From contig NC_087245.1 of the NCBI RefSeq assembly GCF_037042905.1, positions 31,560,001 to 31,624,000 on the forward strand: a DNA stretch of 64,000 nucleotides. Direction: 5' to 3'. Source of the DNA: Lytechinus pictus (Eukaryota). Below are positions 13,745-40,900 of the stretch, piece by piece; the first letter of the stretch is position 1, and each line of letters begins with the position of its first letter. Made by a program: the position numbers and the translations under genes. The notes under the pieces were generated by a model. That model was not told the DNA's origin. It made no database searches and saw only the letters and a list, made by a program, of their open reading frames with translations.

Positions 13745-16006
13745 GTAATTATAGATTGGTGGTGGTGGTGGTGGTGGTGATGATGATGATGATGATGGTG
13801 ATGATCATGACGGTTATCATGATGAGGGTGATGATGATGGTGGTGATGATGATGGTGATCGGATGATGATGATGGTGGTTATAGTGGTAATAAAAAACAT
13901 TTGTATAAGCGTCATAAGTATAAAAAAAAATATTCAAAGGCTCCATGCTCCCACAGTATACATTTACATTACATTTTACACATCGTTGCTTGAAAAGACA
14001 GGTCTTTAGTTCAGATTGGAAGGTCTCAATATTGTTAAAATTACAAAGTTGGATTGGTTGGAATCATGGGCGGAAATCCCAGGGGGGACGTGTCCCCCCT
14101 ACTCAAAATAGTAGGGGGGACACAATATCAGATTTCCCCCCTACTATTTTTGGTCTTTTATGATGGTAAGTAATACATCATTCAAAATCGAAATAAAACA
14201 TGTGTTTTAGGACGAGATGACCTGACTTTTGGAATGATAACTTTTTTTTTTTGCTTGTCAAATTTATTTTCGTCGAAATGACCTTTAATTTGGGGTGATA
14301 AGCTTTTTTTTTTTTTTTTGCTTGTCAAATTTTCCAGCCCCTTGTCCCCCCTACCTTTTGGGAGAGATTTCCGCCCCTGGTTGGAATGAAGAAATACAAA
14401 CGTATTCATACTTATAACGAAAAATAATTGCTTTACATTTTCTCTAGCTTATCAACATGTAGTATCAAAAAATCGACAAAGGGACCTTCACAACTCTCTT
14501 ACTTTTAAATCGTTTTTATACGTATAAAAGAAAATAATGACAAGCAACGGCAAACAATGTAAAATGCTACAACTACAGTAATAATAATAATCGAAACTGA
14601 ATTTTGGTAACATCATATATCGCCTACTACTAAGTAATTGTGAAACGAGTTATAAATTTTGTTAAATGAGAAATGAGCATATTTGTTTAAAAGTACCGAA
14701 AAGTAATTGTTACATGCACTGATTGAGCATGTTTCGTAAAGCATTTTGGAAACATGGACAAGTCCATATACTCACTTTTTCATAGAATTGAGACATTGTA
14801 TATTTCTTTATTAGTAATAAATCAATATGGGTAAGTGCTTCTAATATAAAATGACATTGATTTTTTAAAAGACATTTAGAGAATTTGATTTAGTTGTTAT
14901 TAGTTTGATTTATTATATGACACCACCTTGTTGATTCACACACAAAAAAGGCACAACTGATAAAAATTGATTTAATCATCAAAAATATACATTTAAACAA
15001 AACATGAAGCCACGTTCTTGCAATGGTATTTTTGTATATTAACATGAAAGTAAGCTTTTACAGTTGTCATAATCCTATTTAATCAAAGATGACACCAAAT
15101 ATCTGACACGATTATCACTCTTTGGTTCTAATGGTTTTATCGTCACACAGGTCCAAGCAAACATCGAAAGTGCAAATTTTAGTAAGGTGATGAGTGAGTA
15201 CGCAAATGCATTCGATCAGACGGGATTTAGCAACGATACCAAGAGACAACTCGATAGCATACGATTTATCGGATCGGCTGCTCTGCCAGACGATGAACTC
15301 AAAGAGGTAAATTTAAAGCAAAACTTGTTATCATTCGAAACAAATTCACGAAGACATTTATTGAGAAAAAAAAAATTCCGTTTAATAGCTGGTAGTTAGA
15401 GGGGGAAGCTCACCTCGACGATAAGTTGGTTTTAATAAAAGAAAAATTGGGAGTGAAGTCAATCCACCAAAGAATAACGGAGTTGTGAATTTTAAAAGTT
15501 GTCGTCACCGACGAACAGCTCCTCCGTATGTCATATGATATGAATGTTATTTACATCACATACGCATAAGAAACAGAGTTCAAGCAAAACCTGCTTGTAG
15601 TATTTCAATACTCCGAACGTTATTTTGATAAAATGAATAATCAAACAATAATTGTCTTTTCCCCTCAGATTTTAACCTTCATGTATGCTCCATTCTAAAA
15701 ATGTTATTAAAAAAACACACAAATAAAACTAAGTATGTAATACCGCGATATCTATTTTCCAACTCGGTCAGTTAAAAAGCTATCCAATCCAGTCAAATGC
15801 GCATAAAGTAAAGTGTGATTCAAATACTTTCAAAAGGATAAAGATTGTATAGAGAAAAAGTCAGTTTACAAAGAACATTTTCCATTCTAGTTGGACCGCT
15901 TTTTTTATTTTTCGGTAATAATGATTTGATTTTCTTCCATGATTCTATTCCCAGCCTCATACAAGCTCTACCTGGTCCAACCTCTTTTTCATTTATTTTT
16001 TGTATG

Positions 16007-16055
<49 letters not shown>

Positions 16056-19000: not shown

Positions 19001-22000
19001 TTCATTTGATAAAATCGGGATTTTAAAAATCGAAAATCTTTAAATAAAATACAAAATAAATTACGAGTTTGTGACCATTTGGGACATCATTTGTTCCCAT
19101 TTTGTTTCCCGCCCGTGATTTTCATCTCTTGATAAGTAGACCTTCTAAAGAATCATATTTGTTAGCTTTCATATTTTCCAACCAAGGCAATAAACTCTTC
19201 AGTGTTTGAATTGTTAGATTTTTCCCTTTAGTTTGACAAACAAATTACATTTTTGGGGATGGACTCCCGTGGTTGACTTGGTCTATAACAGGTTCTTGAA
19301 TTAATACATATTCTATTTTTTTTAAATATATACTAAAGGTCATTTCCCCTCCTTTTCGTTGCAAATTCTTGCAACATCCTGTTGGGAAGGTAAATTTGTC
19401 AAACCAACAATCTTTTGTTCGTTAGTTTGATTTGTATCCAAAATCCAGTGACGCCCCTTAACAGTTTGTATAATGATCGTGATTGTATCATAAAAAGGCT
19501 AATAATGACAGTTATACGAAGCGGAAGGCGAGATTTTATAAAGATGTATTGACTATAGCATAATATTATATTAAAAAGTGTGTGATTGAACTCGAACCGA
19601 GCTCTCTCCCGACAGATATTTTATTCTATACAAGCATTATGAGTGTGTTTTTTCAAACTATGCATATGTTGGTGGACCTAGAGTCTTTTATTATTGGTAC
19701 AAAAAAAGAGAAGGATAATACCCACAGAGAATATCATGGGAGGTATTATAGTTATTTAGGTCTCAGCTGGGCGGTGTTGAGGAAGGGGTGGGGGCAAAAT
19801 TACCTAAAGATGACGTCATGTCTTTTAAATTTCAATTGCAGGTGTATTGTAGGTTCACACGACCCATGCCTCTCCTGATTGTATTTTTCTTCTTTATTAT
19901 TTACTTCATCCCCTCCCTCTCTGTCTCTCTCTCTCTATTTATCCCTTATTCACAACTTGGAAAAAAAATAATAATATGGGGGCGATCACCACTGCCCCTG
20001 TGACATAATCCTGTTACATGTTAAAGGGAAAGTCTTCCCTAATTTAAGGATTTTACTAAAAATTCCGAAAATGAAATAAACATCAGTTAATGTTTGACGA
20101 GAATCCATAAAACTGAAAAAGGTTATGAATTTTTAAAGTTTGATAATACTTGGTTCTTTTATAGCGCATCACACATATCAGATTGTATGTCCCTATGCGC
20201 TAAAAGTATAGGAAAAGTATAAAGTAAGAAAAAAAAGCTCAGTATTACTTGTACAAAAAAATCAGTATTGGACACTGAGTTCTCTGGCAAAGTGTTGAAT
20301 AAGTATCTCATAAGATAAACTTTGAACTAAGTTACTTTGGTATCTCATGGAATCAGGTGCAGGTACCCCATGTGATCTGATGTTGCCCTTTTTTCTGAGC
20401 TACAAAACATTCTGCCTCTTCTATGAAGTCTGCATAAATCCTTGAAAGATTCAAATTCTGGTTTCATATTCTTTAATTTGAGAGACAGAATAAAATAATT
20501 ACACACTTTGTTGTTGACTAGCAATCAATATTTTCGGTTATACTATTTTTATCATCAAATATAAGAAACCAATTCTAGAGATCGATTTGAATCATATATT
20601 TCTATCTTTTTATTTCATTTTCTCAGACAAACCGGATGCAGGGGCGTACTGGAGATCTTATTACGAAGTGGACAATCTGCCAGAGATCGCAGAGAAGCTA
20701 TACGATGAGCTGAAACCCCTGTATGAGGAGCTTCATGCCTATGTGAGGAGAAAGCTGTACAACCGATACGGCTGTGATTACATCAACCTACGAGGACCTA
20801 TCCCAGCACACATCTTAGGTTATTATTTGGATATCATTATCACTGGCTTGGGCCACGAATCCCCCAAATTTTAACAGCCTAGGAAAAAGGGAGGGGAAAA
20901 AACGAAAAGGGGTGAAATATAATATCCTTTTTTTTCAATGTTAAAATCTATCGTAATTTATTTTTGTATGAAAAAGGCGAAATATTTGCTCGCTCGTTTC
21001 GCTCGCCGCAGCTTTTCAGAATTTGACTCATATGCCATGTCTGCCCCCCTCATTTTGGCTCATTGCGCGACTTGGTAATTCTAATAATTTTTATGACCAA
21101 CATTACCAAATTCACTTTAAACTTTTTTAAACAACTTGTTTAACACATTAAATAACTTGTTTAACAATATAAGCAATAGTTAAAGAGTGACGGGCTTAAA
21201 ATGAAAAACATTGTTTTCAACTTTTTACAGTGTAAAAGGGAAGAAATATGGCTTCAAGAATTTAGGGAGCAAGCAACTTGATTCTATACAATCAATGATA
21301 AAATAGTGTTTTTTCAGACTTATATCCTGAGATAATTTTAACATTTCAAAGATTACATGACAATAGTAGAACCGCTTTATACAACTTTAAATCTACAATG
21401 TTGAAAAATTGCATTCTACTTTGTAATGAAGTTAGAAAGACTACCCATGAAATTAACAGTATGCACCACAAACTTGTTTTATATAAATAACAGGCATAAT
21501 AAAACGAACATTTGGTGAAAATGGATTCCTTATTGGTTGCCAAAAATAGAATACATCCGGGTCACGGGATTGAAACGAAATATATGAACAAGATCATATT
21601 CATCAGAATTAAAAGCTCCATTGTTTTGCCCCCCCCCCCTCTCTCTCTTTATCTACCTTTCGCTATTTTACACTTTCAACAGGTAATATGTGGGCTCAGT
21701 CATGGATCAACATTTACGACATATGCGAACCGTTCCCTGGAAAACAAGCAGTCGATATTACCCCAGCCCTCGTCGAACAGGTAAATCACAGATAAATTGA
21801 TTCATTAGTCAAACAAATGAAGTTATTTTACGTTTTCCTTAGAAGCGTCGGGGAGCATTTCATGAATGGACTTGTCGGACGTTTTATCCGACAAGTCCTG
21901 TTTTATCCGACAGTTACCATAGTAACAGTGCCTCTCAGCCAATCAGAGTCAAGGAAACTTGTCAGATCTGACAACTTGTCAGACAAAAATGTTTATGAAA

Positions 22001-25000
22001 CACTCCCTGGTCTTGTTATTCTGAGTTTCGTCTTTCAATCAGAGGGTCGTGGGTTCGAATCCATGCCACAGTGTTCCTTCAGCAATAACTCGTCAACATT
22101 ATATTCAGTTGTATTCAATGTGTACCTGACAGGAATACTCGTTCCTTTAAAAAATGCTTGTGCGTTGGGATATATTAGGCTTATTATGATTGTCATGATG
22201 ATTGGTATCAATACTGCTTTTATCACCAGTTCACCAACACTAACATCATCATCACCATCACCAACACCGCCGCCACCACCACCACCACCACCATCATCAT
22301 CCTCATTGTCATCATCATCATCATCATCATCATCAATTATCATCATCATCATCATCTCCATCATCAACATCATCATCAACACCACTATCATCATTACAAT
22401 TATTTGTACAATAATAAAGCGTGAATGATTTGATAAGGTAAACTAAATTCCTCCTCATTCTTGTGCTATAGGCTCCCGGGATAGGCTCTATGTCATTATT
22501 TCAACTATGTCCATTATTAATTTTGTAAAGTGGCCTTATCTTGACAATAATACAATAGTGACAATTTTTTATCATTCATGTGTACTAATTTGTATTGTTT
22601 TGTTCGTTTACGCGCGATTTCTCTGATAAAAAAAACATTGGCTGATCTACAATGATCAAAGGTAATTTTACCATGGTTGAATCAAAATTATTTTCGATGT
22701 ATTTCTCTTATTTAGGGCTATGATGCTTTGCAGATGTTCGAACTCTCGGATGAGTTTTTCAAATCGCTCGGTCTGATCAAGATGCCTCAAGAATTCTGGA
22801 ATCATTCCATGATTGAGAAACCAGATGATGGTAGGGATGTAGTATGTCACGCATCGGCCTGGGACTTCCTCAATCAAGTGGACTTCAGGTGAAGACAAAC
22901 TGAGATAACTTTGGGAATTTAGGCCACTGGCATACAGATAGAGGGGCGCTTGGGGGCTCTGACCCCTTTCCAAAGTTCCATCCCACCTCCCCCCCCCAAA
23001 AAAAAAAAGAAAAGGATGAAATGATTGAGTAAGAAAAAAAGGTGAAACATGATATTGTTTGTTTAAATATTGTGTCAAAATCTATCACTAATAAAATTTA
23101 TTACATTTTCATCAGTATTAAAATACCAACATTTTCACTCGCTCGCGATTTTTGAAAATTTTCTCCACATACACTACTAGTATGTTGTACTGTGCCCCCT
23201 CGAAATTTTTGTGGCTCGTTACGCCACGGATATAGGCCTACAATCAAGTAAGAAAAAAATGGAACATGGTATAAACGCAGAGGATGTTTGATTAATCTTT
23301 TTTTCTCCCCTCCATGTGGGGAAGGGGAAAACCTCTGTTTATCTCAAAGTTGGACATTGAACACTGCACAGGAGGGTATCTTGATTATCAGACCTACATC
23401 ATGTACCATTTTAGAAACACATGACCAGTCTTATGATTGATTTTAACTGCAAGTATCGCAAACTGTACATTGCATTGTTAAAATATGATATTGTATTACT
23501 ATGGCATATAGGAGTTTATCAGTCCATAATTAGAGTCTTATCTTAAGGCGGAATTTGAGGACTTTGGTTCTTTCGTAATCCTGTAATCTTAGAGAGCTAT
23601 ACACAAAACATAAAGAATTTTTGATTCATTTTGCGTTATATAAATATAATTTCATAATTATTCATTATAATTTTCATTATTATCATCAGCATCATCATCA
23701 CCACCATCGTCATCATGATCATTAAATTGTTACCTTCATCAACATCATCATTAAATTGTTACCTTCATCAACATCATCATCATTATCATCACATCATCAC
23801 CATCAACATTATCATCATCATCGTCGTCGTCATCACCACCACCATCATCATCATCCTTATGGTCATCATCATCACCATCGTCATCATCATCCTCATCACC
23901 ACCATCACCACCACCATCTTCATCATCATCATCATCATTATCATTATATATGAGAATTCTATGATATCCTTCATTATGATGCAGAATCAAGCAATGTACT
24001 GACATCACCATGGATGACTTCATCACGATCCACCATGAGATGGGACACATCGAGTATTACCTTCAGTACAAGGATCTACCCGTGGTATACAGGGGCGGAG
24101 CCAACCCAGGATTCCACGAGGCAGTGGGCGACGTCCTCGCTTTGTCTGTATCTACACCAAAACATCTGCAACAAGTCGGGTTGATTGATGAAGTGGTGGA
24201 TGATGACGGTATTAAAACTTGTATTTCTTTGTTTTTTTTCTTTCATCATGAAAACCACCACCACAACCATCGTCATTATCATCATCACCACCACAACTAT
24301 CACGATCGTCGTCGTCATCATCATCACCATCACCATCAACGACAATTCTCTGATATCCTAATGATACAGAATCAAGCAATGTACTGACATCACCATGGAT
24401 GACTTCATCACCATCCACCACGAAATGGGACACGTCGAGTATTTCCTCCAGTACAAGGATCTACCTGTGGTATACAGGGGCGGAGCCAACCCAGGATTCC
24501 ACGAAGCAGTGGGCGACGTCCTCGCTTTGTCGGTATCGACACCCAAGCATCTGCAACAAGTCGGGTTGATTGATGAAGTGGTAGATGATGACGGTATTAA
24601 TATTTTTCCGTTGTCTTCTTTTCACACATATTATAGCTGTAGCAATAAATTCCGATGAGTAATGTGAATCTTTGTTTACCCGTGAGCAAAAGTTTGTATC
24701 TATTGTCTATTGTCATAAATCATTGTTTTCTGGTCGAATGATTGAGCAATAATGAAAAAATGTTAAGCATAAAGGGACTTATTAGTACATTACATTGTAT
24801 TACATTTTTACTCATCTTCTTCTTTGATCTGACCGACACAGAGGCTGATTTGAATTTCCTAATGAGTATGGCTTTGGATAAGATATCCTTCCTACCATTC
24901 GGTTACCTGATGGACCAATACAGATGGGGAGTGTTCAACGGATCTACCACCGAAGATCACTATAACGAGGACTGGTGGAAACTAAGGTATTGTTTTAATT

Positions 25001-28000
25001 CTCGAAGATTCAGGCATCAAAATGTACGGAAGTTTTAAAGTGCTATCGACGTGAAGAGATGATGAGGTATCTTGTCAAAGTTTTATATCGACTTGGCGAG
25101 ATGCACGACCTCACCACGTCGACTTATAAAGAGTTGTATGTCAACACGGCGAGAGATGCGATTGACGTATCTCGCCAAGTCAGCATAAATAAGACCTTTT
25201 TATGTCGACACATCTCTTCATATCATCAAGTTGGTGGAACTTTAAACTTTAAAGGTTCAGTACAATGGAGATTCGTATTGAGACTTGATTTCATAAACTT
25301 ATAAAGTTTGTTGTATATTGAAATGCATATGTCTTTTGTTCTCTTTACTCAGATATGTCGGGAGATCTCTTTTATTTTTAATGTTTTTTCTTCTTCAAGT
25401 TATTCCTTTGTTTTTGATGATTTGAATGTCAATTAAAGCGACTAATTACTATAATTAGTTTGAAGTGAACATCATTATTTTCCATTTACTTTAGACTCCG
25501 GTACCAAGGTATCATACCGCCGACACCAAGGAGTGAAGAAAATTTTGATCCAGGGGCAAAGTACCACATCCCAGCAGACGTGCCGTATATCAGGTATGGA
25601 TGCAGGCTATGTTACAGTGGAAAAAAAAACTCCGTCCCTCGGACAGGACGTTAAATGGAGGCCCCGTGTAGAGGAGAATCACCACATTTGTACGTTAAGA
25701 ATCCACTGTACTATTCGTATAAGAGTACGGGGAAACCCCGGGGGGGGGGCCGGGGAACCCCGGTGTATAGTCACTGTGGTCCACCTGCACCCCCCATCAG
25801 TTATCTCGGGAGGAGAGACCTGCGGTTCATAGTGATTCAGTTCGCTTTTCGCCTCCCATGCACAGATGACGCCAAACAATCAAACAAACAACAACAATAC
25901 TACTACTATTACTACTACTACTACTCATGATAATAATAATGATAACAACAATAATAATAATAATAATAACAATAATATTTATAGGAGTTTTCTTCCTGAA
26001 ATCATACAGATACCATAAACATTTTTAACAATGAAATAATGTATTAGAGCATGACAGTCATGTATACATAAGACTGTTATATATAACTTAACACATATTG
26101 TTATTCTTTCCTTAGTTGATTAATCTTCCATACATTCCTTAATTTCCGTTTGTTTATAGAATATTGATTACCTTTCATCGGGTGCCTGTTTCGTTAACCC
26201 GTACCATTCTTTATCATTCTAAATAATCTGCAGATATTTCATCAGTTTTGTCCTGCAATTCCAATTCCACGAAGCCCTTTGCCAAGCCGCTGGTCAATAC
26301 GGTAATGCTGGTGACGAACCTCTATATAAATGCGATATATACCAATCACAAGAAGCCGGTCAATTGCTTGCGTGAGTATCTTTGTAATGATATTAAGGAG
26401 TTGGAGGTGCCGTGACCTAGTGGTCTAAAGGCGACCGCACACCTTACGATTGGTCTGCGACCCGATTTCAGAATAAAACGTATATAATTTGATGCTAATA
26501 TTGAGACTTGGAATATCTTACTGTGTAATGTTCAAAATCATCAAACGAATACCTATGTTCAAATCTGTGACTATGCTCTCATCCTTCTTAGAATAAAAGC
26601 AAACTTAATATCTAGTCGTAATGAAGTCATAGCAGTCGTACGATTGGCTACGATTTGAAACTAATTTGGCCTTTACTCCAAAATAAAGGCTTGCAATCTT
26701 TCAAAATGGTTATATTAGTATCCTTTCAATTAATATTAACCTCAAATAAAATGATATGTTCCATTCACATTTTCAGAAAATTAGAAAAATGCAATTTGTT
26801 CCAAAATCGGATCGCAAACAGTCGTAAGGTGTGCGGTGGCCTTAAGGCGCTTGACTCGATGCATAAAAGTCCGGGGTTCGATCCCCCGGCAAAGATACTT
26901 ATACCCGTGAGCACGAGCATTTTATCTACTGTGTTCTTTTTATCCTAGATTAAAATAATGGAAATGTCATATTGTTATTAGTGGTAACTATGTGTGTGTA
27001 CTTGTTTAAAAAATAAGTTGATAACTGTTACTCTTGATAAATATCTATTTTTATTATTTTCCAATGCCCCTTCTGAAGTCTAGGGGCCGTTTCATGAAAG
27101 TTGTCAGCACTGACAAGTTGTCTTTCTCCGACAGTTACCATAGTAACAGTCAGAGGCCAGTGCCTCTCAGCCAATCAAAACCTAGGATTTCACTGAGATT
27201 GTCAGCACGGACAATTTAGTCAGTGCTGACAACTTTCATGAAACACCCACCGGTGTAACATAGACCTTAGTCAATCTGCTAAAATTCTAGGAAGCTGAAA
27301 AGTGTCGAAATTTTGTTTGCATTGTATGTTCCTTATGTTTGGATTGTTTCCTCGTGCTCTAATTGTAGAGAATTTTTTTTGGGGGGTATTATTCCCAGAC
27401 ATTATATGCAATTAATTTGAGTGTAAATTGGTCAGATTATTTTACTGGGTTCAATTTAGTCTGGTCTACAGTTGTGGTTAAATTCTTTAAAGCACAACCG
27501 TAGACTAGGGGACCGTTTCATGAAATGAGTTGTCGGACGTTTTATCCAACAGTTACCATAGTAACATTTCTTCTCAGCCAATAAGAATCAAGGAAATTTG
27601 TCAGATATAACAAATCGTCGGATGGAAATGTTAATGAAACGCTCCCCATAGATTATTGAACCCAGTTCAGAAAACGGGCCAATAATATTTATGTTTCTTT
27701 TTTCCCCCACTTCAATATTCATTACTGACCTCTTAACTACAAATTATCTTAAGTTTGGATGTGATGAAAAGGAATATTCGATTTAGTTACTTTTATTCTC
27801 ACTTTCACAGTTCAAAATATAAATGATAAGATTATAATCAATATGCTGTGATTATATTCATTAGCGTGATAACGTGTCCCGTCATCTCGACAAGTCAATT
27901 GTAAAGCTTTTAAGAAAGATAATCCAGTATTCTTTTATCATTATTTTAGTGACATGCTGAAGATGGGATCGAGCAGGCCGTGGCCAGAGGCTCTAAAAGC

Positions 28001-29923
28001 CATCATTGGTAGTCAAGAGATCAGCGCTCAATCTCTGATCAACTACTTCCAGCCTCTTATTGATTACCTGAAGGAACAGAACGAGATGAATGGAGACGTG
28101 GTAGGATGGTCAGAGATGTATACTCCTAAAGGTGAGCTTATAACAATACAGGGGCCGCGGAAGCGGGGGGGGGGGGGGCTCAGCCCCCACTCTTTTTCCA
28201 AACCTGTACAAAAACGTAAAAATTACCATATGATTGTGATTTTTTTGCATGATCAACCCCCCCCCCCCCCCCCACTTTGAAAACCGTTCCGCGGCCCCTG
28301 CAATAATTACACAATATAATTATCATACAGTGCGGTACTTTTTGTTTTAGCAATTCTAAATATTCACAACCATTGTTATTATCATCATTATTACCGGTGT
28401 GTTGGCTCAGTTGGTAGAGCGTCCGTCTCACAACCGGGAGGTCGCGAGTTCAAACCCGGCCTTGTCAGACCAAAAGACGTAAAAAGATGGGAGTTGCTGC
28501 TACCCTGTTTGGCGTTCAACGATTAAAGGGATAGAGCCTCATCGATCTGGCGCTGCACAGCGGCTGCCGGGCCCACGATCAGTTGGGCAAAACAAATATT
28601 CGGAGTATTTAATTTCATGTCTATTTGAACAATAATATATGGATTTTCATTTCATTTTATTTTTGTGAATAAAAGTTGTTGATGATGATGATGAACAGCT
28701 GTTTTGTTTATTTATCTGAAAGAAAAAAATCAAAAGCACTGGCTTCCCAATTATGTCACATTAATAATTGTTCACAAAGTTGCTGAAAAAGATACGTCTT
28801 TAGTTCATATTTGAAGGTCTCAATATTGTCTTTCTTTAAGTTCATCATGAATTTGCATTTGAAAATATTGCAAATCATTATTTGATATAACAAAGAGAAT
28901 GTGAAAATCGATTGATAATCTGGTTGATATTGATAATCTATAAAAATATTTTGATGTTGAAATGTGCTATTAAATCTGAAAAAAAAAGGCTTGGCCATGC
29001 ATGGCTTGTAGAATCCATCATTATCATGGAATGAAAAATTATACAGTGAAGGAGCAAGGAGGCCAGAAAAATGAAAACAACTTCTTGATAATAGGAAAAA
29101 TATGTGTTTATTTTGTTTCTTTCACTTGTCTTTTCATACATGTTTTCGTCTCTATCCTGCTTGACCAACATTGCAGAACGTAAGTATTGATCCTCATGAC
29201 TTGTAATCATAATTTTCTTAGTGATTTTTCTACAAAAATACTATAATGTTTCATTTAGGACAAATTGCTGAGTATGGATATGAAATGTATGAATTCATGT
29301 AATGAGATCATCTACAAAAGTTCAATATTATTTTTAAATATTTTTTTTCCAAGTGCCTTTTATCACACAAAGTAACAAAATATTACAAGATATAATGAAT
29401 ATGAATACTGTGTATGTAAGACTAACTTGGGTTCCTCAATTTGAATAAGCTAAATATCACACAAGACAGAAGTTCATTATCATATTCGTTTTTAATACTC
29501 TCTATTGGTAATAGTAATGATGTCTTAACATTTTGGAGTTTTGATGGTCATTTGAATATGATGCCTACATCGTATCAGAGACGTGTATGCATTTTACCGT
29601 AATTAATTCATATAGTGACGTAATGAGCTAAAATTTTGAGGGGGCGTGATATTGCATATTGGGTCAAATTTATGAAAAGTTGAAACTTTTTTGGGGGGAG
29701 GCAGGCGTCCTAAGCCCCCCATCTGTACGAAACTGATAAAGTATTTATTTTTTTTACGAAATTGCAAACGAAATCCTATTCGTTCTCTGTCTCTCTCTCT
29801 ATTCCAGCTGAAATGGAGGACGATTTGACAAAATGGAAGAAGAGTTATGAGATGTGGCAGATGGAGATGATGGATTGGAAGAAAACATATGAAGATTACA
29901 AAGAACACACCACCTGTGATTAG
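13508..29923 (+). CDS. ACE: Angiotensin-converting enzyme-like peptidyl-dipeptidase (family M2): single catalytic domain, secreted, ~663 aa, with a WAT-like C-terminal peptide
   Basis: join(13508-13744,15151-15306,16343-16430,17406-17549,20627-20818,21683-21780,22716-22888,[23985-24208 or 24370-24593],24842-24986,25495-25593,26234-26371,27950-28131,29808-29923) = 1992 nt, all introns GT-AG, phases consistent. Signal peptide; [46 protein letters not shown]. Has Gln (ACE) rather than Arg (ACE2) in NMWAQ. Confidence 0.96.
13758..13890. repeat. (GGT/GAT)n trinucleotide microsatellite
   Basis: Direct reading. Confidence 0.9.
14065..14379. mobile_element. hAT-type MITE in ACE intron 1
   Basis: TIR CATGGGCGGAAATC / GATTTCCGCCCCTG; perfect 8-bp TSD GTTGGAAT on both sides. 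Confidence 0.85.
15151..15306 (+). CDS. ACE: ACE exon 2
   Basis: [13 protein letters not shown]...[28 protein letters not shown]. Confidence 0.9.
16010..16052. repeat. (TA)n microsatellite
   Basis: Direct reading. Confidence 0.95.
16343..16430 (+). CDS. ACE: ACE exon 3
   Basis: [38 protein letters not shown]. Confidence 0.92.
17406..17549 (+). CDS. ACE: ACE exon 4
   Basis: [27 protein letters not shown]...NQAAVAN; 144 nt; GTAAGG donor. Confidence 0.95.
20627..20818 (+). CDS. ACE: ACE exon 5
   Basis: [11 protein letters not shown]...[15 protein letters not shown]...GPIPAHIL; 192 nt. Confidence 0.95.
21683..21780 (+). CDS. ACE: ACE exon 6
   Basis: [33 protein letters not shown]; 98 nt. Confidence 0.95.
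21850..22008. mobile_element. MITE (Harbinger-like) with a GTTACCATAGTAAC + CCAAT core
   Basis: Inverted ends GGGAGCATTTCATGAA / TTTATGAAACACTCCC; related copies at ~800-930, 27083-27250, 27507-27647, 48152-48305, 55254-55401. Confidence 0.75.
22010..22180 (+). mobile_element. Degenerate tRNA-derived SINE
   Basis: AATCAGAGGGTCGTGGGTTCGAATCC B-box; similar to 58978-59115. Confidence 0.6.
22716..22888 (+). CDS. ACE: ACE exon 7
   Basis: [20 protein letters not shown]...[17 protein letters not shown]; 173 nt. Confidence 0.95.
23670..23946. repeat. (CAT/CAC)n microsatellite upstream of exon 8a; similar tracts at 22240-22395 and 24244-24340
   Basis: Direct reading. Confidence 0.9.
23985..24208 (+). 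CDS. ACE: ACE exon 8a (zinc-binding exon, HEMGHIEYY copy)
   Basis: GCAG|A ATC AAG CAA TGT...; [32 protein letters not shown]...HEAVGD...; 224 nt; GTATTA donor. Confidence 0.8.
24370..24593 (+). CDS. ACE: ACE exon 8b (tandem duplicate zinc-binding exon, HEMGHVEYF copy)
   Basis: ACAG|A ATC AAG CAA TGT...; 224 nt; 13 substitutions vs 8a; GTATTA donor. Confidence 0.8.
24842..24986 (+). CDS. ACE: ACE exon 9
   Basis: [32 protein letters not shown]...WWKLR; 145 nt. Confidence 0.95.
25495..25593 (+). CDS. ACE: ACE exon 10
   Basis: [33 protein letters not shown]; 99 nt. Confidence 0.95.
26234..26371 (+). CDS. ACE: ACE exon 11
   Basis: [20 protein letters not shown]...[23 protein letters not shown] donor. 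Confidence 0.95.
26429..26842. mobile_element. PIF/Harbinger MITE inserted into a tRNA-derived SINE head
   Basis: TIR AGGCGACCGCACACCTTACGA / TCGTAAGGTGTGCGGTGGCCT; TAA TSD; flanks rejoin to ...CCGTGACCTAGTGGTCTAAGGCGCTTGACT...GGTTCGATCCC (A and B boxes). Confidence 0.85.
27083..27250. mobile_element. MITE (Harbinger-like)
   Basis: GTTTCATGAAAGTTGTCAGCACTGAC / GTCAGTGCTGACAACTTTCATGAAAC perfect inverted repeat. Confidence 0.85.
27950..28131 (+). CDS. ACE: ACE exon 12
   Basis: [15 protein letters not shown]...[30 protein letters not shown]; phase-1 GTGAGC donor. Confidence 0.93.
28149..28300. mobile_element. Short GC-ended MITE 17 nt downstream of the ACE exon 12 donor
   Basis: TIR CAGGGGCCGCGGAA / TTCCGCGGCCCCTG; CAATA on both flanks. 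Confidence 0.8.
28394..28640 (+). mobile_element. tRNA-derived SINE
   Basis: TGGCTCAGTTGGTAGAGCG (A box), GAGTTCAAACCC (B box), non-tRNA body, (TTTTCA)n-like tail. Confidence 0.8.
29808..29923 (+). CDS. ACE: ACE terminal exon 13: cholinesterase-type WAT/T-peptide-like tetramerisation peptide
   Basis: Strong pyrimidine tract + CCAG (29804-29807); phase 1 matches exon 12; [38 protein letters not shown]. Confidence 0.8.
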
Positions 29924-30291
29924 ATTGACAGTTCCAAAATATTCAGAGTAACATGAGATTGTGGCAATGAAGGGGCGGGTCTTGCTTTTTTTTCTTCGTG
30001 GATTCCCAAACAAAAAAAGGGTAAAATTAAACGTTGCTCGACAAGGAAGAAAAAAAAGATGTATATGAATGGTTTAACGCCTTCTTGATTACTATAAGTG
30101 TATATACTTAATGATTCTAATTAAAGAGATTGAGTACGCAGAAAATGATACAATTTGGTAGTTAGAACAAGGGTGTACTTCTTTTGATAATAGTGGCGAC
30201 ACTCTTCACACTTTCTTAAAAGCGCGCCATACATTGTCTTTCAGGTGCGTGTATACATACTGCAGTGTTTTAAAATGTTTTACGCAACTTT

Positions 30292-30879
30292 AAAGGACAA
30301 GTCCTCCCTAGGAGAAAAGTTTATTTGAATGAAAAGAGAAAAATCCAAGGCAGCAAGCATAACACTGAAAATTTGATCAAAATCGGATGTAAAATAAGAA
30401 GTTATGACATTTTAAAGTTTCGCTTAGTTTCACAAAACAGTTACATGCACATCCTGGTCAATATGCAAATGGGGAAACTGATGATGTCATCCACTTACTA
30501 TTTATTTTGTATTTTGTTATATAAAATATGAAATATTCTAATTTTCTCCTCTTTCCTCCCTGAACATGTGGAATTAGCATTGTTTAATTATACATGGTTC
30601 AGTCAAGTTGGTCCTTGTTGTCAAATATGTAAAAAATGAAGTATTGTTTAATTCAAACATTTAAAAAACAAAATAAATAATAAGTGGAGGACATGTCTCA
30701 GTTGCATGTCACTGAGTTGTGCATATCACTGTTTTGTGTAAAATAAGCGAAACTTTATAAAGTTATAGGTTGTTTATTTAACATCCGATTTAATGAAATT
30801 TTCAGCATTATGCTAGTTTAATTTTTTTCTCTTTTATTCAAATCAATCAACATTTTTTCTGGGGTGGACTTGACCTTTA
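30292..30879. mobile_element. Non-autonomous TIR element, Kolobok-like family; relatives at ~43817-44200, 51831-52412, 54139-54694
   Basis: Ends AAAGGACAAGTCCTCCC / GGGGTGGACTTGACCTTT; inverted subterminal GAAAATTT.ATCAAAATCGGATGTAAAATAA blocks; TTAA-like flanks. Confidence 0.7.
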
Positions 30880-30928
30880 CCAATTATGTGTATAATGTAT
30901 ACTCGTTTATCGTAATATATGTGACAAA

Positions 30929-31086
30929 ACGGTGTATCTCATTTGTTGAATTGAAAGTTGAAATGAAACGAAATTATTTTTTCGGCATTTACAAATACAT
31001 ATTATATATAATACGGTGTATCTCATTTGTTGAATTGAAAGTTGAAATGAAACGAAATTATTTTTTCGGCATTTACAAATACATAT
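30929..31086. repeat. Local tandem duplication (~74 bp x2)
   Basis: ACGGTGTATCTCATTTGTTGAATTGAAAG...TACAAATACATAT at 30929 and 31013. Confidence 0.9.
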
Positions 31087-32639
31087 TTATAAAACAAAAA
31101 AATCCATCAATATTTTGCACTTATACCATCACCATAGTAATCATTAATTATGAGAATTGAGTACATATGCAAACTTGTGTAGCATTTATTGGGGCTCTAG
31201 CAGCTATTGACTGTCATTATTTTTGTCAGAAATAAAGATATTGATTTTTATTTTGAACATGCATGCTGTAAGAAACTGTGGGCTAAATGCAATGCTGGAT
31301 ACGCTATGTTGACTGAATTATAGGATTTTGCGCCCTCTGGGGGTTTTTGTGTGTACTTGTCATGCAAGTTGGGATAACAATGTGTATCAGTGTCTATTAT
31401 CTACTTCCCATCTATATTGATAAAGTTCATAATGATTTTAATAATAATTTATCTGTCAATAGTTTCTAGAACACACGTCATTTTTGCCTAGAATGATATA
31501 TGTTTGTCAAAATTACATTAAAAAACCACGTTATACACGAATGTTTGAATATACTCAGTATTGCTCAGTTCAGCTGCAGGCTTCATTTCATGGTGTTATG
31601 TAATACATGTGTTGTTGTCTCTGTATGAACTAGATATATCTGCATTATTACAAAGAATTTCATTAAAACAAATTAATGTAAATTAGTCTTTATTATAAAA
31701 AAGTGCATGAAGCTTGCGATCAATTGCAGACCAATATATCGATCACAAGTTTTACCATTAACTGCAAATTTGCTCTTTATTGATCGACACGTTTCATACA
31801 TTAAAAATGAAATGATTTTTATGTATTTTATGTGATTAAGCTCGTCATTGCAAAGTTGAAATCGATATTGAAATGAAATAAAAAGTTGTGTTAATCCATA
31901 ATTGAGTTTTTGCTGTACCTCTTGGTAATTTTAAGACGACTCATTAAAATAATGAAGTCCCTAAAGATTGGAAGAAAAATCAATATATTCAACGTGAGAT
32001 TGTAACAATTATCATGAACAGATTGTTGTGGAAATCAAGGGAGTTCTTTGATTTTTAAAGAGAATTTGTCCTATTTAATTGAAAAATATACCATGAGCCA
32101 TGATATACGCTGATTTACAGAAAAATACTTATCATAAACACATTTTTATGCCGCCCCTTTTTGACTATATATGCTTCTGTACGTACATGTATAGACTCTG
32201 TAAAAAAGGTTTTCCGGTGTGTGTGTGTGGGTGTGTGTCTGTGTGTCTCTCCCCCTCTCTCAATCTCCCCAGTTTCACCCCTTTCCTCTCTCTGGCACTC
32301 TCCTGTATCTCCCTGTTCTTCCTTCTTCTTTTTTTTTTGAGGGGGGGGGGGGAGGGGGTCGTTATTTTTTTAATAAGAAAAATCCTGAGGTGATTTAGGT
32401 ATCAACTAATTTTAATAGAGATACAGTAAACATGGTAAATGCAGTTTGACTGATGTGCTGTATTAAACTGATCATATATAACTCAAATTCACGAAAATTG
32501 AGGAACGGCAAGCTGATCAGGCAAAATGCCTTTGTAGGAGATTTGTAGGTCTTTGGGGTCGAGCGAGAGTGGGAGGGGAGAGAGAAAGGGTGAGAGAGAG
32601 AGTGGGAGGGGAGACAGAGACAGACAGACCGAGAGACAG

Positions 32640-33791
32640 ATAGATAGCTAGCTAGATAGATAGATAGCTAGCAAGATAGATATATAGATAGCTAGATAGA
32701 TAGCTAGATAGATAGATATCTAGATAGATAGATATATAGCCAGTTAGATAGATAGCTAGATAAATAACTAGGTAGATAGCTAGATAGATAGGTAGCTAGA
32801 TAGCTAGTGAGATATCTAGAAAGCTAGCTAGATAGATAGCTAGATATAAAGCTAGTTAGATATCTAGAAAGCTAGCTAGATAGCTAGCGAGAAAGATAGA
32901 TAGCTAGCTATTTAGATAGATAGCTAGTTAGCTAGATAGATAGCCATCTAGATAGCTAGCTAGCAAGATAGATAGGTAGTTCGCCAGTTAGATATATAGC
33001 TAGATAAATAGATAGCTAGTTAGATAGATAGCTAACTAGATAGCTAGCCAGCAGTCAAACTGCATTTACCATGTTTACTGTATCTCTATTAAAATTAGTT
33101 GATACCTAAATCACCTCAGGATTTTTCTTATTAAAAAAAGATATATAGATAGATAGATAGATAGATAGATCGCCATAAAACAGTTAGGTAGATAGAGAAA
33201 GGGGCCGGTTGAGATGGGGGAGAGATTAATTAGACCATAGCTATTTCTAGCTCTTATTAAAAAAATAACGACCCCCTCCCCCCCCCTCAAAAAAAAAAGA
33301 AGAAGGAAGAACAGGGAGATACAGATCTATAGATAGATAGCTAGCTAGATAGATAGTTAGATAGCTAGCTAGATAGATAGCTAGTTAGATAGCTAGCTAG
33401 ATATCTAGATAGATAGATAGATAGCTAACTAGATAGGTAGCTAGCAAGATAGATAGATATATAGCTAGATAGATAGCTAGATAGATCGCCAGTTAGATCG
33501 ATAGCTATTTAGATAGATAGCTAACTAGATAGATAGCTAGCAAGATAGATAGATAGATAACTAGCTAGAGAGATAGATAGCTAGCTATTTAGATAGATAG
33601 CTATATCTATCTAGATAGATAGATAGCTAGATAAATAGATCGCTAGGTAGATAGATAGCCAACTAGATAGATAGATAGCTGGATAGATATATAAATAGAT
33701 AGCTAGTTAGATAGCTAACTAGATAGATAGCTAGCAAGATAGATATATAGATAGCTAGATAGATAGATCGCCAGTTAGATAGATCGCCAGT

Positions 33792-33822
<31 letters not shown>

Positions 33823-33905
33823 CTAGCTAGATTGATAGCTAGCTAGCTAGTTAGATAGATAGCTAGCAAGATATATAGATAGATAGATAGATAGATAGAT
33901 AGATC
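32640..33905. repeat. Compound (GATA/GCTA)n tetranucleotide satellite with inserted templated segments
   Basis: Direct reading; interrupted at 33052-33324 by copies of flanking DNA. Confidence 0.92.
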
Positions 33906-34841
33906 GCCATAAAACAGTTAGGTAGATAGAGAAAGGGGCCGGTTGAGATGGGGGAGAGATTAATTAGACCATAGCTATTTCTAGCTCTTCACATTTTTCT
34001 TTTCATGTTCTCAGGAAAGTGTTCACATTACACTCAGAATGACATGAGCCAATAAGTATCGGAGAGCCAATAGAATTTAGTCAGCAATTTGCGCTCGCAT
34101 TATCTAGTGGAATATACGTTTCTTGTCTCCAATTGGGGGTGTAAATATAAAACAAAATTGTGCCCACATATTTGATTGGTGAAAAATCTTCACTACAAGT
34201 CCCGATAAACTTAAAACTTAAGTCCACGTGCAGTATGTTATTTATTTTTTGAAAGGCCTTTATATAGAGGCCCCCGCCTCTTAGCTCTCCTAGCGGCCGT
34301 TCGAAGTGAAGAGTCTTTGTTCCCCACTATCTATTCTTAGATAGATGGATTCATATGAATGTATATCTGTATGAGAAGAATATAATTCAAATTCAACTTT
34401 CAATTAAAGATTTTAAAAAGCTTCTAGAGAGTGACTATTTGTCCCAACAGTCCAACGCGCTCCCCAACCTGTCCCCTATTATTGGACTACATGTAATAAC
34501 TTTTACACACGTGTCATTTTCATTGGGCGAACTGTACTGGTAGGCGTGGTTACAGAAACGAAGAACTTTTTACAAATAAAACAAGTATTTTAAGTTTTTG
34601 GTCACAGTACTCACGCGTTTGAAATTAAGAAATAGAGAGTGAGAAAGATTTATTATATGCTACTGCCTTTTCATGATGATCATATCAGTTTTATTTTTGT
34701 CCCAAGACGAAGAGAATCTTTTTAAAACCAGTAAAGACCAAAGTTTTTTTTTTTTAATATCCCTAGCTTGTCTCCTTGAAAGACCTTGATGCATTTCTAA
34801 CGTTACAGAAGCTGGAGTGTGTGAGCTGACGAAATAAGATC

Positions 34842-34996: not shown

Positions 34997-37900
34997 GTAT
35001 GTCGGCTCTCTTTTCGTCTTTGCTTGTTTACCTTGTCCCACACGTTCATTTTCATGTTTGTGTACCGGTACGCCAGTACCGGATGAAATGCTTGTTTTAA
35101 CCACTCCTAGTACCAATGAGGTCCAAACATTACATGTATGGACCACTCTAGGCGACACCCCAAGGCAATACTTACCCGTGCTAATAAACTGGGACTCCAC
35201 TCACGCGCATTTGGGCCGCCCTAGCTTAGAACTAAGCAATATTATCTAGAAATTGTTACATTGTAGTCATTAAATATGTTCTATTAAATAAATTGATAAT
35301 GTTTAATCGGTACTCACCGGTTCTTTTGTTGCATTTTCAGACCATTTCTCACAATTCTTCGTAAATATTTGCGGCAAATTTTGTCGCCATAGACAGCTTA
35401 GCATCCATCTTTATTGATAAATGGAGCGCCCTTTACGATAGTTGTTAATGCCGCGGAGAAATCGTTAGGCATTTTGGCCTGTGTTCAAGGCGTTCTTTCT
35501 GTTTTATTTTTTATATTGAAGATTGTGCATTTGTTGAATAGCGCCGTCTACGTCAGGTATGAGATCGAGTGTATAAATACACTCTTCCAAAATAATTATG
35601 ATTCCGACCTGGCGCTGTTTAACTTCAATCTCTTTCACCTAAATTAGCGATGAATGCTAGCATTATAAAATATATATTATTAACGTCTGACGAAAAGAAT
35701 AACCAACCGATCAGCTGACGAGAACGCGAATCACGTGATCTTCATATCAGCTTCGATCGCGAGTCAGAAGAGAAGAGCAGCTGCCCAGAAAATCAGGAAA
35801 AAGCCGTGAAAATGTAAGTTCCCCTTCATTTCTTTCATTTTTTTTTGTTGCTAACGATGCATTTACACTATAAAATTATAATTTAAATAAGAGAAAGGAA
35901 TATAGCTTGTACTTGTGATATAATATATAAATATCCTGTTCTCAGAGATTTCTAACCAAAAATACTACTGATGTCGCCTATGAGGTCCATACATGTAATG
36001 TTGGACCTCATTGGTACTAGGAGTGGTATGGACCTCATAGGCGACATCAGTAGTATTTTTGGTTAGAAATCTCTGAGAACAGGATATTTATATATTATAT
36101 CACAAGTACAAGCTATATTCCTTTCTCTTATTTAAATTATAATTTTATAGTGTAAATGCATCGTTAGCAACAAAAAAAAATGAAAGAAATGAAGGGGAAC
36201 TTACATTTTCATGGCTTTTTCCTGATTTTCTGGGCAGTTGCTCTTCACTTCTGACTCGCGATCGAAGCTGATATGAAGATCACGTGATTCGCGTTCTCGT
36301 CAGCTGATCGGTTGGTTATTCTTTTTGTCAGACGTTAATAATATATATTTTATAATGCTAGCATTCATCGCTAATTTAGGTGAAAGAGATTGAAGTTAAA
36401 CAGCGCCAGGTCGGAATCATAATTATTTTGGAAGAGTGTATTTATACACTTGATCTCATACCTGACGTAGACGGCGCTATTCAACAAATGCACAATCTTC
36501 AATATAAAAAATAAAACAGAAAGAACGCCTTGAACACATGCCAAAATGCCTAACGATTTCTCCGCGGCATTAACAACTATCGTAAAGGGCGCTCCATTTA
36601 TTAATAAAGATGGATGTATAGCTGTCTATGGCGACAAAATTTGCCGCAAATATTTACGAAGAATTGTGAGAAATGGTCTGAAAATGCAACAAAAGAACCG
36701 GTGAGTACCGATTAAACATTATCAATTTATTTAATACAACATATTTCATGACTAGAGTTTAACAATTTCTAGATAATATTGCTTAGTTCTAAGCTAGGGC
36801 GGCCCAAATGCGCGTGAGTGGAGTCCCAGTTTATTAGCACGGGTAAGTATTGGGGTGTCGCCTAGAGTGGTTTTAACTTTTATCATGTTTATTCATATTG
36901 ACTGTGCTTAGCGCTATAAGAATAAACCTAAGCACTCCTAGTACCCATGAGGTCGATACATAAACAGTATTGGGCCTAAATGGCAGTATCGTGAAATTGG
37001 GAACCAGTTCCTAATTTCCACCGGACACTTTTTCACGACAAGACGAAGACATGAAGTTATGAACTAGACTGTAGTGTAGACAGCTGGCAGCCGTCTCGAG
37101 GAGTTTGTAAACATTTTTGTCTCACCTGCATAGCAGAGTGAGACTATAGGCGCCGCTTTTCCGACGGCGGCGGCGGCGTCAACACCAAATCTTAACCTGA
37201 GGTTAAGTTTTTGAAATGACAGCATAACTTAGAAAGTATATGGACCTAGTTCATGAAACTTGGCCATAAGGTTAATCAAGTATTACTGAACATCCTGCCT
37301 GAGTTTCATGTCACATGACCAAGGTCAAAGGTCATTTAGGGTCAATGAACTTAGACCATGTTGGGGGAATCAACATCAAAATCTTAACCTAAGGTTAAGT
37401 TTTTGAAATGTCATCATAACTTAGAAAATATATGGACCTAGTTCATGAAACTTATACATAAGGTTAATCAAGTATCACTGAACATCCTGCATGAGTTTCA
37501 CGTCACATGACCAAAGTCAAAGGTCATTTAGGGTCAATGAACTTTGGCCGAATTGGGGGTATCTGTTGAATTACCATCATAACTTTGAAAGTTTATGGAT
37601 CTGATTCATGAAACTTGGACATAATAGTAATCAAGTATTACTGAACATCCTGTGCAAGTTTCAGGTCACATGATCAAGGTCAAAGGTCATTTAGGGTCAA
37701 TGAACTTTGGCCAAATTGGGGTATTTGTTGAATTACAGCCATAAATTTGAAAGTGTGTTGGTCTAGTTCATAAAACTTGGACATAATAGTAATCAAGTAT
37801 CACTGAACATCCTGTGCGAGTTTCAGGTCACATGATCAAGGTCAAAGGTCATGTAAGGTCAAAGAACTTTGGCCACGTTGGGGGTATTTGTTGAATTGCC

Positions 37901-40900
37901 ATCATATCTCTATAAGTGTATTGGTCTAGTTCATAAAACGTGGAAATAAGAGTAACCAAGTATCACTGAACATCTTGTGCGAGTTATAGTAGTTTTCAAA
38001 ATCAGCACTGCTGCTATATTGAATCGCGTGATGCAGGTGAGACGGCCAGAGGCATTCCACTTGTTTCTATTTTTTTCTCCTTTCGCAACATTCTTTTTAA
38101 ATGAAGGTTGGATTGGTATTTCAAAGTGAATTGGGTGAATGGTGATTTGTGAATCTCCATTGTTATTTTTATTTTTCTTATTTCTCCTAGTACACGGACG
38201 GCTCGCGATCGTGCAGCCGCCATTAGGGGGTTAACAAATAATGCAAAATCCTCCCAACGGGCGGGGCTCATCGATTTTTGTCTTTATTTCATAAAAATAA
38301 AAAAGAACTGTCAACTCGACCAAAGTAAAGATTTTGATTCCGATTTGGCCTGAAATGCATCAAAACAAAAAAATAAAGGAAAAAAAACAGTGACTTACTT
38401 CGACTGTCGCGCAACTCCCACTTCCCTGGTTTATCCGACTTCATGCATAAACATATGGCCATTGAGTCCCTGTACAGATCGAGTTAGAACTTCGGTCTCT
38501 GTAATTGGTGAGTGGAGCGAACGGAGCTCAGCAGAACAACCAATATAACAGAGACCGAAGCTTTTGGTCTAGACATGACCTACCTAATTTCACGCTTGCT
38601 CACTGTGCTGCTTCACTGCAGGCGCAGCTGGCACGCTGCTTCTAACTAAGACTAAAGAGCTTAGATCAGAAAGATTGATTTCATTGTTGTCTTTTCTATA
38701 CTTGTTGAAATGGGAACCAGCGTGGAAAACTCCCCATACTTTGTACACGCTGGTTCCCATTTCAGTAAACTAGTTTAATCTAGAGTAAAACACCCAAACA
38801 TTGGACGGAAATGACTTCAACTCCCTCCCCACAACTACAGGGACCCGCACTGGCGGGGGACTTGCATGCATGAGATGCAGGAATGGTGGTGTGACCTTAA
38901 TTCGCGCGATACCTAATTTTGCGCACGGTCGAATATCTCAATATCTAGAGTATCTGCGCCAATGTGCGGCTGCTTAAGGATTTTTCCCATCTTGTAACTA
39001 TTAAGGACTGATGGTACAACCTTTTTTATTGCAAAAATTGGCCGATAGCAATTGCGGTGGTCAAGACCGCGAGATAGCATTCCCTTGTAGGCGGCTGCCC
39101 TGTGTGATACGATGTAGCCTTGAGGACTCTGTGATGGTATTTTTGAAATATTGTAACATCACAGAGCCTTGACACGGTGGGCATACATGCCTATGCAAGA
39201 CATGTAAACACGAATGGATTTCCCTAGGAAATCCATCTGTACAACTAAAAATTGTGTAAATTTGTTGGATTTATCTATCTATACACCCTTTTATGCCTAA
39301 TGCGAATGAATGTACGAAAAATCTGTTAGTATAAATATGAAAAATGAGAGGTTTCTTACCAGGCCGATCTCGTGTAGATCCCTCGATCCATTGGTAAACA
39401 CCACAAATACAATAGGCTTGACCTTGAACTGCTTAGGCTTGACCTTGAACCGCTTTGTTATGATGTAGCTTCGATGAGCGATGTTACAAAATGCTGTTTT
39501 CAAGAACAATTTATAGATAGAAATTATTATTTAACAAATAATAGCATTTGAATTTTGATTATAAATAATTATTATTATGATAATAATGAAATGGAAACCG
39601 GCATGGAAAATTCTCCATAGACTTCTACACGCTGGGCTCCATTTTGAAGAGTAGATAAAGACAGATTACTAATGAGATATAAATTTATTTTGTCAGTGAT
39701 GATTCTGACAAAATGAATTTCTCTAGTAAACTGTCTTTATCTACTCATAAAAATAGTAACCAGCATGTACAATTCAGGGGGAATTTTCCATGGCTGGTCC
39801 CCATTTTGAAGAGTAGATAAAGACAGATTACTAATGAGATTTATTTCGTCAGTGATGATTCTGACGAAATGAATCTCACTATAATAAACTGTCTTTATCC
39901 ACTCATGAAACAAGTAGATATACAAGTTTAATATTAAAATGATTCATCCCCTTATATATCGTGTTTGTGATTTATTTAGTGAATCGATTTTGTAATAATT
40001 TTTTTTTCAACGTTGTTTAAGTGGCAGAGCGGTCTTAAGAGCAGGGAATTGCAGGGTAGATGGATTAATTACAAAATTATAATGTCCACCCATGGCAATC
40101 TGAGCCTGATAAATATTGCATGAGGAAAGAGGGAACCAGTTGTGTGAGGAGCTTCACATTGTAAACAAAGCCTTTTGCATCAATTCTTTTGAAAATCGCC
40201 AAAGCGAAGTTTCTTTTCATATCGTTTTGAAAGGAGGTACAAATTCGATTTGGTGACCAGTCCCCAAATGCATGGAATGGCCGCCTAAGGGAGCATTGGG
40301 ACCTCAATAAGGTGGAAAGGGCGGCGCTAATGCAGTTTCGCACCGGCCAACTTCGATAGGTACTCCGACATAAAGCATTACCTTAATATATTCTTTATTA
40401 GCATTGTTATCACAAACATTGCTCAAAACTTACCTCAAATTTCCTAAATAGTGAAAAATAAGGCTTACCGTAAATACTCCATAACATGTGCCTGGAAATG
40501 CATGTAGCATATTGTGTGGGCTAATGGCTAAAAATAGGCATTTTAAAGTCTTTATGCTGACCTAGGACTGTGTGACTCTGAGAGGAGCCGTGGAAACAAG
40601 TCACATCAATAGATAATCAACTTGGCTGTCACAAAATGTGAAGATGTCGCTTCATGTAACTACATGGTTCACTCAAAAAAACAGTTGGGGCCAACTCGCG
40701 TATCGACTATTTAGGCATATGTATACAGCACAAATCTAGTGCCAGTGCCCAGCCTAACTTCAAGCAAATGCATGCCTCATGGCAAGTCTCTCAGTTGCAT
40801 TTCAAGGTCAATATTAGCCTAGAGGACTCTGTGATGATATTTTTTTATGATTTTGATATTGTCATTACATCACGGAGCCTAGACACGCATATGGGACTGT

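Follow-up and report, generated by a model that had tools for sequence, protein, structure and literature searches.

A sea urchin ACE gene with a cholinesterase-type WAT exon at its 3' end

A gene for angiotensin-converting enzyme (ACE), a zinc peptidase, lies on the forward strand of a 64,000-nt stretch of the Lytechinus pictus genome (NC_087245.1, positions 31,560,001 to 31,624,000; this whole stretch is the window, in whose coordinates positions are given), and its last exon encodes a peptide like the one that ends cholinesterases, the T or WAT peptide. When exon boundaries were sought in the window by a depth-first search for GT-AG sites, a single 12-exon solution was obtained, which runs from 13508 to 28131 (+) and ends in phase 1, and whose product is exactly the first 626 residues of the L. 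pictus protein XP_063961610.1 (P0122). Exon 1 (13508-13744) carries the start codon, a hydrophobic signal peptide (recognized by eye), a short proline run and the start of the M2 domain. It is followed by exons 2 (15151-15306), 3 (16343-16430), 4 (17406-17549), 5 (20627-20818), 6 (21683-21780) and 7 (22716-22888), each of which matches P0122 exactly, by exon 8a (23985-24208), which encodes the HEMGH zinc-binding motif and EAVGD, and by exons 9 (24842-24986), 10 (25495-25593), 11 (26234-26371) and 12 (27950-28131), the last of which completes the M2 domain and has a phase-1 donor after 28131. A polypyrimidine tract with a CAG acceptor ending at 29807 (29786-29807) precedes terminal exon 13 (29808-29923), where 37 residues are followed by a stop (TAG, 29921-29923). 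Joined to this exon, the 12 exons give a product of 663 aa with one stop, at its end, and the last 44 residues are those of XP_054759704.1 (P0124). The 3' untranslated region (29924-30345) extends at least to 30345, since record 6 of the contig set X1 covers 29983-30345 without a differing letter, and candidate poly(A) signals are found at 30026 and 30120 (ATTAAA) and at 30672 (AATAAA).

As far as its sequence can tell, the gene is an intact, signal-peptide-bearing, single-domain ACE, with predicted dipeptidyl carboxypeptidase activity. The zinc ligands are intact, with HEMGH at residue 380 and the downstream Glu408, and align with those of human testis ACE. For the Lytechinus variegatus ortholog P0001, the Pfam M2 family (PF01401) is matched from 2 to 581 of 581 profile positions, above the cut-off (E=2e-264), and the identity to human testis ACE is 54%. 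Eight cysteines lie in the ACE domain, and the ninth of the mature chain, Cys662, is in the tail. The roles in neuropeptide degradation and peptide clearance that are considered here for this enzyme are those known for the ACE family.

Several independent comparisons place the exon-13 peptide with the cholinesterase tails. Its best Pfam family is AChE_tetra (PF08674; E=4.3e-4, 20.4 bits), and in a search of the PDB the top match was the AChE WAT chain 1vzj (E=0.023), with cholinesterases making up six of the eight matches; an urchin WAT profile that includes this exon found 1vzj at E=1.7e-7, with AChE and BChE next. When a hidden Markov model (HMM) was built from 17 esterase T exons of this genome, the ACE exon being left out, this exon scored 41.6 bits against it, as opposed to 18.7 for the best of 2000 shuffles, and when the window and the 3' regions of ten ACE paralogs were searched in six frames it was the only match (E=1.2e-10; the next had 0.89). 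The tail has the pattern W1 Y5 W8 M12 W15 Y19 Y22 C28, where human AChE has W1 F5 W8 Y11 M12 W15 F19 Y22 C28, so that six of the seven aromatic positions and the cysteine are kept, with Tyr for Phe at 5 and 19; the lost aromatic, at position 11, is a Glu, which is also the consensus of the urchin WAT alignment. The three heptad tryptophans, the further aromatics and the C-terminal cysteine (W1 Y5 W8 W15 Y/F19 Y22 C28) are present in three species. In addition, the first Trp codon is preceded, at a distance of 26 nt, by an AG both here and in 17/17 esterase T exons. The sequence-only reading of this stretch had placed a WAT last exon at 29808-29923, with a strong acceptor, the phase required by exon 12, and six of seven aromatics plus the cysteine retained; all of this was borne out by the Pfam, PDB and HMM comparisons, by the pyrimidine tract and the 663-aa frame, and by the same count in the alignment with the human AChE chain.

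A number of results weigh against this assignment. The AChE_tetra scores of the L. pictus tail (20.4 bits) and of its Strongylocentrotus purpuratus counterpart P0040 (19.1 bits) are below the 25-bit gathering cut-off, so the proposed membership held as to the top-ranking family and failed as to the threshold; several true urchin esterase WATs likewise fall below it. Searched at full length, P0001 and P0124 gave no AChE_tetra match at E<=0.01. In helical hydrophobic moment the ACE WATs do not exceed shuffled sequences (p 0.19-0.59), and the ACE-WAT models of other species imply, as inferred from their proteins, acceptor distances of 29 and 23 nt. Taken together, profile similarity indicates that the tail is a homolog of AChE_tetra, not a curated Pfam member, and its acceptor phase is firm, with the exact distance of 26 nt being only suggestive.

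Elsewhere in the genome, 17 further WAT matches were found, all of them in short exons whose tryptophans are spaced in the same way and whose ends lie at, or close to, a Cys and a stop, and every one lies downstream of carboxylesterase exons (16 by tblastn, and L018 by coordinates). Four additional WAT sites that were fetched have esterase exons upstream as well, and a set of weak PF08674 genome matches (L033-L036), with neither a WAT-HMM match nor an upstream esterase, was set aside as noise. Among the WAT exons detected, whose counts are lower bounds, this ACE is the only non-esterase host. A profile search of 50%-cluster representatives gave 28 matches, which comprise eight COesterase proteins, one esterase-tail fragment, 17 short single-exon open reading frames (ORFs) and two repeat artefacts; because this search missed the ACE-WAT proteins themselves, other non-esterase hosts may exist. 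In a search of shorter proteins two of five candidates matched, both of them single-exon genomic ORFs, and no new spliced fusion was found there, and Atlas searches with ACE-WAT returned only ACE clusters or generic helices. Carboxyl/cholinesterase genes with a T exon appear expanded in this genome, at roughly 30 sites (L002-L018, L027-L044), among them G000:C3:21.09-21.32 Mb, C3:41.8 Mb and C10. Vertebrates have two T-exon cholinesterase genes.

The fusion is not confined to one genome. ACE-WAT models exist for L. pictus (P0124), L. variegatus (P0001, P0121, P0123) and S. purpuratus (P0040, XP_011663849.2), so that the search for M2 plus WAT architectures that the sequence-only reading had proposed revealed conservation in three urchin species. 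The architecture is present in five of the 124 proteins scanned (the 120 top-ranking of 7722 homologs, together with cluster members), all in one clade. L. pictus and S. purpuratus share 86% identity in the M2 domain and 15/28 residues in the tail; within the WAT, conservation extends to all seven key positions (identical at six, Tyr/Phe at the other), as compared with 9 of the 21 others. In a tree of 30 catalytic domains, the WAT clade (100/100) falls inside an echinoid group (92/97; 97 in a 14-protein tree). The remaining 14 echinoderm ACEs, from crinoids, starfish, brittle stars, a sea cucumber and urchins, all have hydrophobic tails of the glycosylphosphatidylinositol (GPI) type, a label that is a reading of these tails and not the output of a predictor; the best 15-residue tail hydropathy is 1.75-2.79 in these 14 proteins, versus -0.83 to -1.14 in the WAT ACEs.

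These tails point to the origin of the fusion. In the one paralog in which the last intron was mapped (L019, G000:C3:50.97 Mb), a phase-1 intron interrupts the same codon position and is followed by a GPI exon. Because 14 other ACEs are GPI-tailed and the GPI exon of a paralog occupies the same phase-1 position, a swap of the terminal exon is the likeliest explanation: a whole T exon together with its acceptor most likely replaced the GPI exon, by shuffling at the DNA level, in a common ancestor of Lytechinus and Strongylocentrotus. The swap would be tens of millions of years old. An exon-shuffled WAT module had already been suggested from the sequence of the window, and the shared phase-1 position, the tree and the GPI tails support that suggestion. 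In S. purpuratus the ACE-WAT gene, a GPI-ACE and WAT esterases are all on 62,154,208-nt contig records, presumably one chromosome, and this shared location fits a local rearrangement. When the donor esterase was sought at the DNA level, only a dispersed repeat came up, and the WAT tree did not single out a donor (support for the ACE group, 24). When the long-branched Diadema ACEs P0065 and P0072 were tested as GPI-tailed orthologs, p-AU was 0.33.

With regard to splicing, record 1 of X1 (795 nt, depth 33.5) contains exon 9 at record positions 526-669 and exon 12 at 105-286, with 239 nt between the two, which is 2 nt more than the summed length of exons 10 and 11. That X1 is RNA is a guess, and record 1 is taken as a spliced transcript because it skips four introns. 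This record runs 104 nt beyond 28131, and at both 29830 and 29861 the contigs add up to a depth of exactly 33.5; from this extension and the matching depth on the WAT exon the join 28131^29808 is inferred. The junction expected by the sequence-only reading is thus supported by a contig, and the joint 28131^29808 itself does not figure among the 15 of 349 joints listed. In a raw RNA run with another organism label (X24), 13 reads were found at 29830, and the two variants listed in the WAT exon comprise a silent change and a Met>Val substitution. In two other raw RNA runs, X21 and X23, of which about 6% was read, there were almost no reads on the coding exons, so expression is presumably low or restricted. 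In the newer NCBI model, P0122, the exon-12 donor is read through and there is no WAT; the tail of this model (28132-28280) is repeat-rich, poly-C intron sequence, and the read-through is probably a mis-annotation. The claim that no anchor exon precedes the next gene, which we take to be TXNDC5, also stood: a scan of 28132-34830 found no GPI-like phase-1 exon, the other seven of eight candidate acceptors giving a best 15-residue hydropathy of at most 1.45, and the real GPI exon of the paralog was recovered as a control (2.63). No match to esterase sequence was found anywhere in the window.

The two parts of this protein belong to well-described systems. On the enzyme side, the GPI-type echinoderm ACEs and human testis ACE (PF01401) share with it the complete catalytic domain, HEMGH and third Glu ligand included, and paralog L019 also shares the intron after the domain in position and phase; the difference is that the L. 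pictus protein has a WAT tail in place of a GPI signal or transmembrane helix. On the tail side, the WAT of AChE-T and BChE (PF08674; seen in 1vzj, and on ColQ, PRiMA and lamellipodin peptides) is likewise encoded by a phase-1 terminal exon, has in common with the ACE tail the W1/W8/W15 heptad, the aromatics at 5, 19 and 22, Met12 and Cys28, and resembles it in the predicted single helix after a flexible linker. It differs in that Tyr11 of AChE-T is Glu in the ACE tail, as in the urchin esterase consensus, in that the ACE tail lies below the Pfam cut-off, and in its host, which is an alpha/beta hydrolase as opposed to the zinc dipeptidyl carboxypeptidase fold here, for which binding to a PRAD is only predicted. 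The alternative H (GPI) and T (WAT) terminal exons of cholinesterases represent the same exchange of GPI for WAT as in ACE, and 3'-end exon shuffling within cholinesterase genes has been proposed in a passage of PMC3045457; whereas cholinesterases achieve the exchange by alternative splicing, the ACE swap crosses enzyme families and is fixed between paralogs (no H-like exon was found). An engineered alkaline phosphatase-WAT, as cited in part of PMC1285061, places a foreign enzyme on a PRAD through an appended WAT, as proposed here for ACE, but it is artificial, whereas ACE-WAT is a natural gene conserved across species.

An excerpt of bioRxiv 10.1101/431288 calls the WAT-type mode of assembly unique to cholinesterases. 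No description of an ACE-WAT fusion was found in the open-access literature, as represented mostly by titles and the starts of abstracts, and these proteins are entered in public records only as ACE or ACE-like. While the ACE and WAT families are known, their combination is a domain swap that is real and conserved and, it appears, undescribed, one that is easily missed because the tail scores too low for Pfam's cut-off and is missing from the newer gene model. Evolution appears to have moved the WAT onto an unrelated enzyme and to have kept it there across urchin families. The gene offers a clean case of replacement of a GPI by a WAT terminal exon, a natural test of the WAT as a portable anchor, and a bait for an invertebrate PRAD partner.

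How such a protein may be assembled is suggested by the cholinesterases. According to passages of PMC1285061, four WAT helices surround one antiparallel polyproline-II PRAD, for which synthetic polyproline can substitute, and the WAT domain is autonomous, since alkaline phosphatase carrying a WAT assembles on a PRAD, with 3:1 hybrids under-represented. Parts of bioRxiv 10.1101/431288 and PMC5943944 describe ColQ and PRiMA as PRAD sources, with polyproline peptides in this role for plasma BChE, a terminal Cys that joins subunits to one another or to the anchor, and 2+2 AChE/BChE hybrids. In the lineage of Lytechinus and Strongylocentrotus, a GPI-anchored single-domain ACE copy most likely lost its GPI-signal exon and gained, at the same phase-1 intron, the T exon of one of many local carboxyl/cholinesterase genes, giving a soluble zinc peptidase with a linker of ~20 residues and a WAT helix of ~28 residues. 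By analogy with the cholinesterases, four WAT helices would in the secretory pathway wrap a polyproline-II partner (PRAD), Cys662 would link subunits or link them to the partner, as in AChE-T, and the ACE tetramer would either be tethered to the matrix by a ColQ-like collagen or circulate, long-lived, on polyproline peptides, as BChE does. We consider it rather likely that the gene product is a secreted ACE that tetramerizes on a polyproline partner. To our knowledge there is no precedent for such an oligomeric form of ACE.

An AlphaFold model based on an alignment of 30 ACEs (mean pLDDT 87) shows the catalytic domain, a loop at 611-630 and a WAT that forms a single helix at 631-658; a single-sequence AlphaFold run on P0001 was uninformative (pLDDT 33), and the score of 0.06 obtained when four copies of the WAT were modelled as a complex in the absence of a PRAD is used neither for nor against tetramerization. 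As for a partner, a candidate ColQ-like gene lies on the minus strand at G000:C1:23.319-23.326 Mb (L045, L046; 23318500-23326500); its collagen exons, at least six in number, are followed by a non-collagen segment, another short stretch of collagen and a Cys-rich DUF4215 exon. This order resembles the domain order of ColQ given in part of PMC10671321. In a search of the PDB the non-collagen segment gave no match, and the DUF4215 exon met only bacterial DUF4215 clusters in the Atlas. The segment may resemble ColQ in its sequence too. Tetramer assembly is disfavoured by the searches for the PRAD: no PRIMA1 match above the cut-off was found in the genome, three PRAD DNA patterns yielded noise or no match at the collagen locus (two of them with counts about equal to those of reversed-pattern controls), and no PRAD exon was found in the next 3.5 kb upstream of the collagen exons (11.5 kb covered, with the 5' end of the gene lying beyond).

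A tentative extension, which we hold to be possible but less likely than not, is that in these urchins the WAT/PRAD pair has become a general enzyme-docking scaffold, in which a ColQ-like collagen or other PRAD protein would load ACE beside the 17-30 WAT esterases, possibly in mixed tetramers. If so, peptide and ester signals would be cleared on one matrix-bound particle, and this ACE would be the first natural non-cholinesterase client of the WAT/PRAD anchor.

Among other explanations, the one that survives best accepts the fusion as real and selected and has the tail act independently of a PRAD, as a Cys-linked dimer, by self-association, by amphipathic sticking to membrane or matrix, or as a degradation signal that limits secretion, all of which are roles known for the free AChE T peptide. 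It would account for the failure to locate a PRAD in the genome, the kept aromatics and Cys would suit such roles too, and the four-helix dimer interface of cholinesterase catalytic domains (part of bioRxiv 10.1101/431288) is absent from ACE. It is nevertheless unlikely, given that the full heptad Trp pattern that stacks on a PRAD is kept in three species, that at least 17 esterase genes retain the same exon, which implies a working partner, and that a ColQ-like collagen gene is present. Assembly on a polyproline partner also has to be set against a still less probable explanation, accidental capture of the WAT exon as a convenient terminal exon and poly(A) site, which would leave an inert tail on a simply secreted ACE. 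The tail does diverge much faster than the enzyme (15/28 versus 86% identical), X21 and X23 point to little or no expression, and an older S. purpuratus model (P0154) has no third Trp; however, the divergence spares the seven functional positions, the two variants listed for X24 are one silent and one Met>Val, the current S. purpuratus model has the third Trp, and the unnamed single-exon ORFs P0127 and P0155 retain all three. Lastly, that the join is an annotation artefact, with the WAT exon left by a lost or neighbouring esterase and ACE ending by read-through as in P0122 or in an unseen anchor exon, is hardly credible despite that model and the joint missing from the 15 of 349 listed, since the window has no esterase match, no GPI-like exon lies ahead of the next gene, the spliced contig extends 104 nt beyond exon 12 and takes in the WAT exon, the P0122 tail enters repeat-rich, poly-C intron sequence, and the join appears in five NCBI models, four of them from the two Lytechinus species and the fifth from Strongylocentrotus.

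Near its other end, the ACE gene also has a feature of note, in that the WAT-bearing ACEs have a short Pro run after the signal peptide (13580-13600), which most GPI-type echinoderm ACEs are without; a similar PPAG motif is present in the Diadema protein P0065. As a built-in PRAD this run was rejected for being too short (four Pro; three, scattered, in S. purpuratus). Within the catalytic domain, the zinc-site exon is duplicated in tandem: exon 8b (24370-24593), with its own AG and GT, differs from 8a, the copy whose alleles the spliced contig carries, at 13/224 nt (I>V, Y>F). Because 224 nt is not a multiple of three, the two must be mutually exclusive in splicing, and the L. variegatus isoforms X1 and X2 (P0123, P0121) have one exon-8 version apiece. 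The duplication may be a splicing switch of ACE active-site specificity. The GPI-anchored paralog on C3 (G000:C3:50960728-50964312) has four copies of the zinc-site (HEXXH) exon, and the annotated L. variegatus isoforms P0157, P0159 and P0161 differ in the residues just after the zinc motif.

The downstream gene presumed to be TXNDC5, a fitting name given in the sequence-only reading, occupies 34842-55234; its product has a start resembling a signal peptide and ends in KEEL, with thioredoxin exons in the gene. In its intron region, ORFs of a repeated element occur on both strands (35110-35650, 36380-36910, 38017-38283 and 38153-38350), and these have the look of mobile-element copies or inverted arms.

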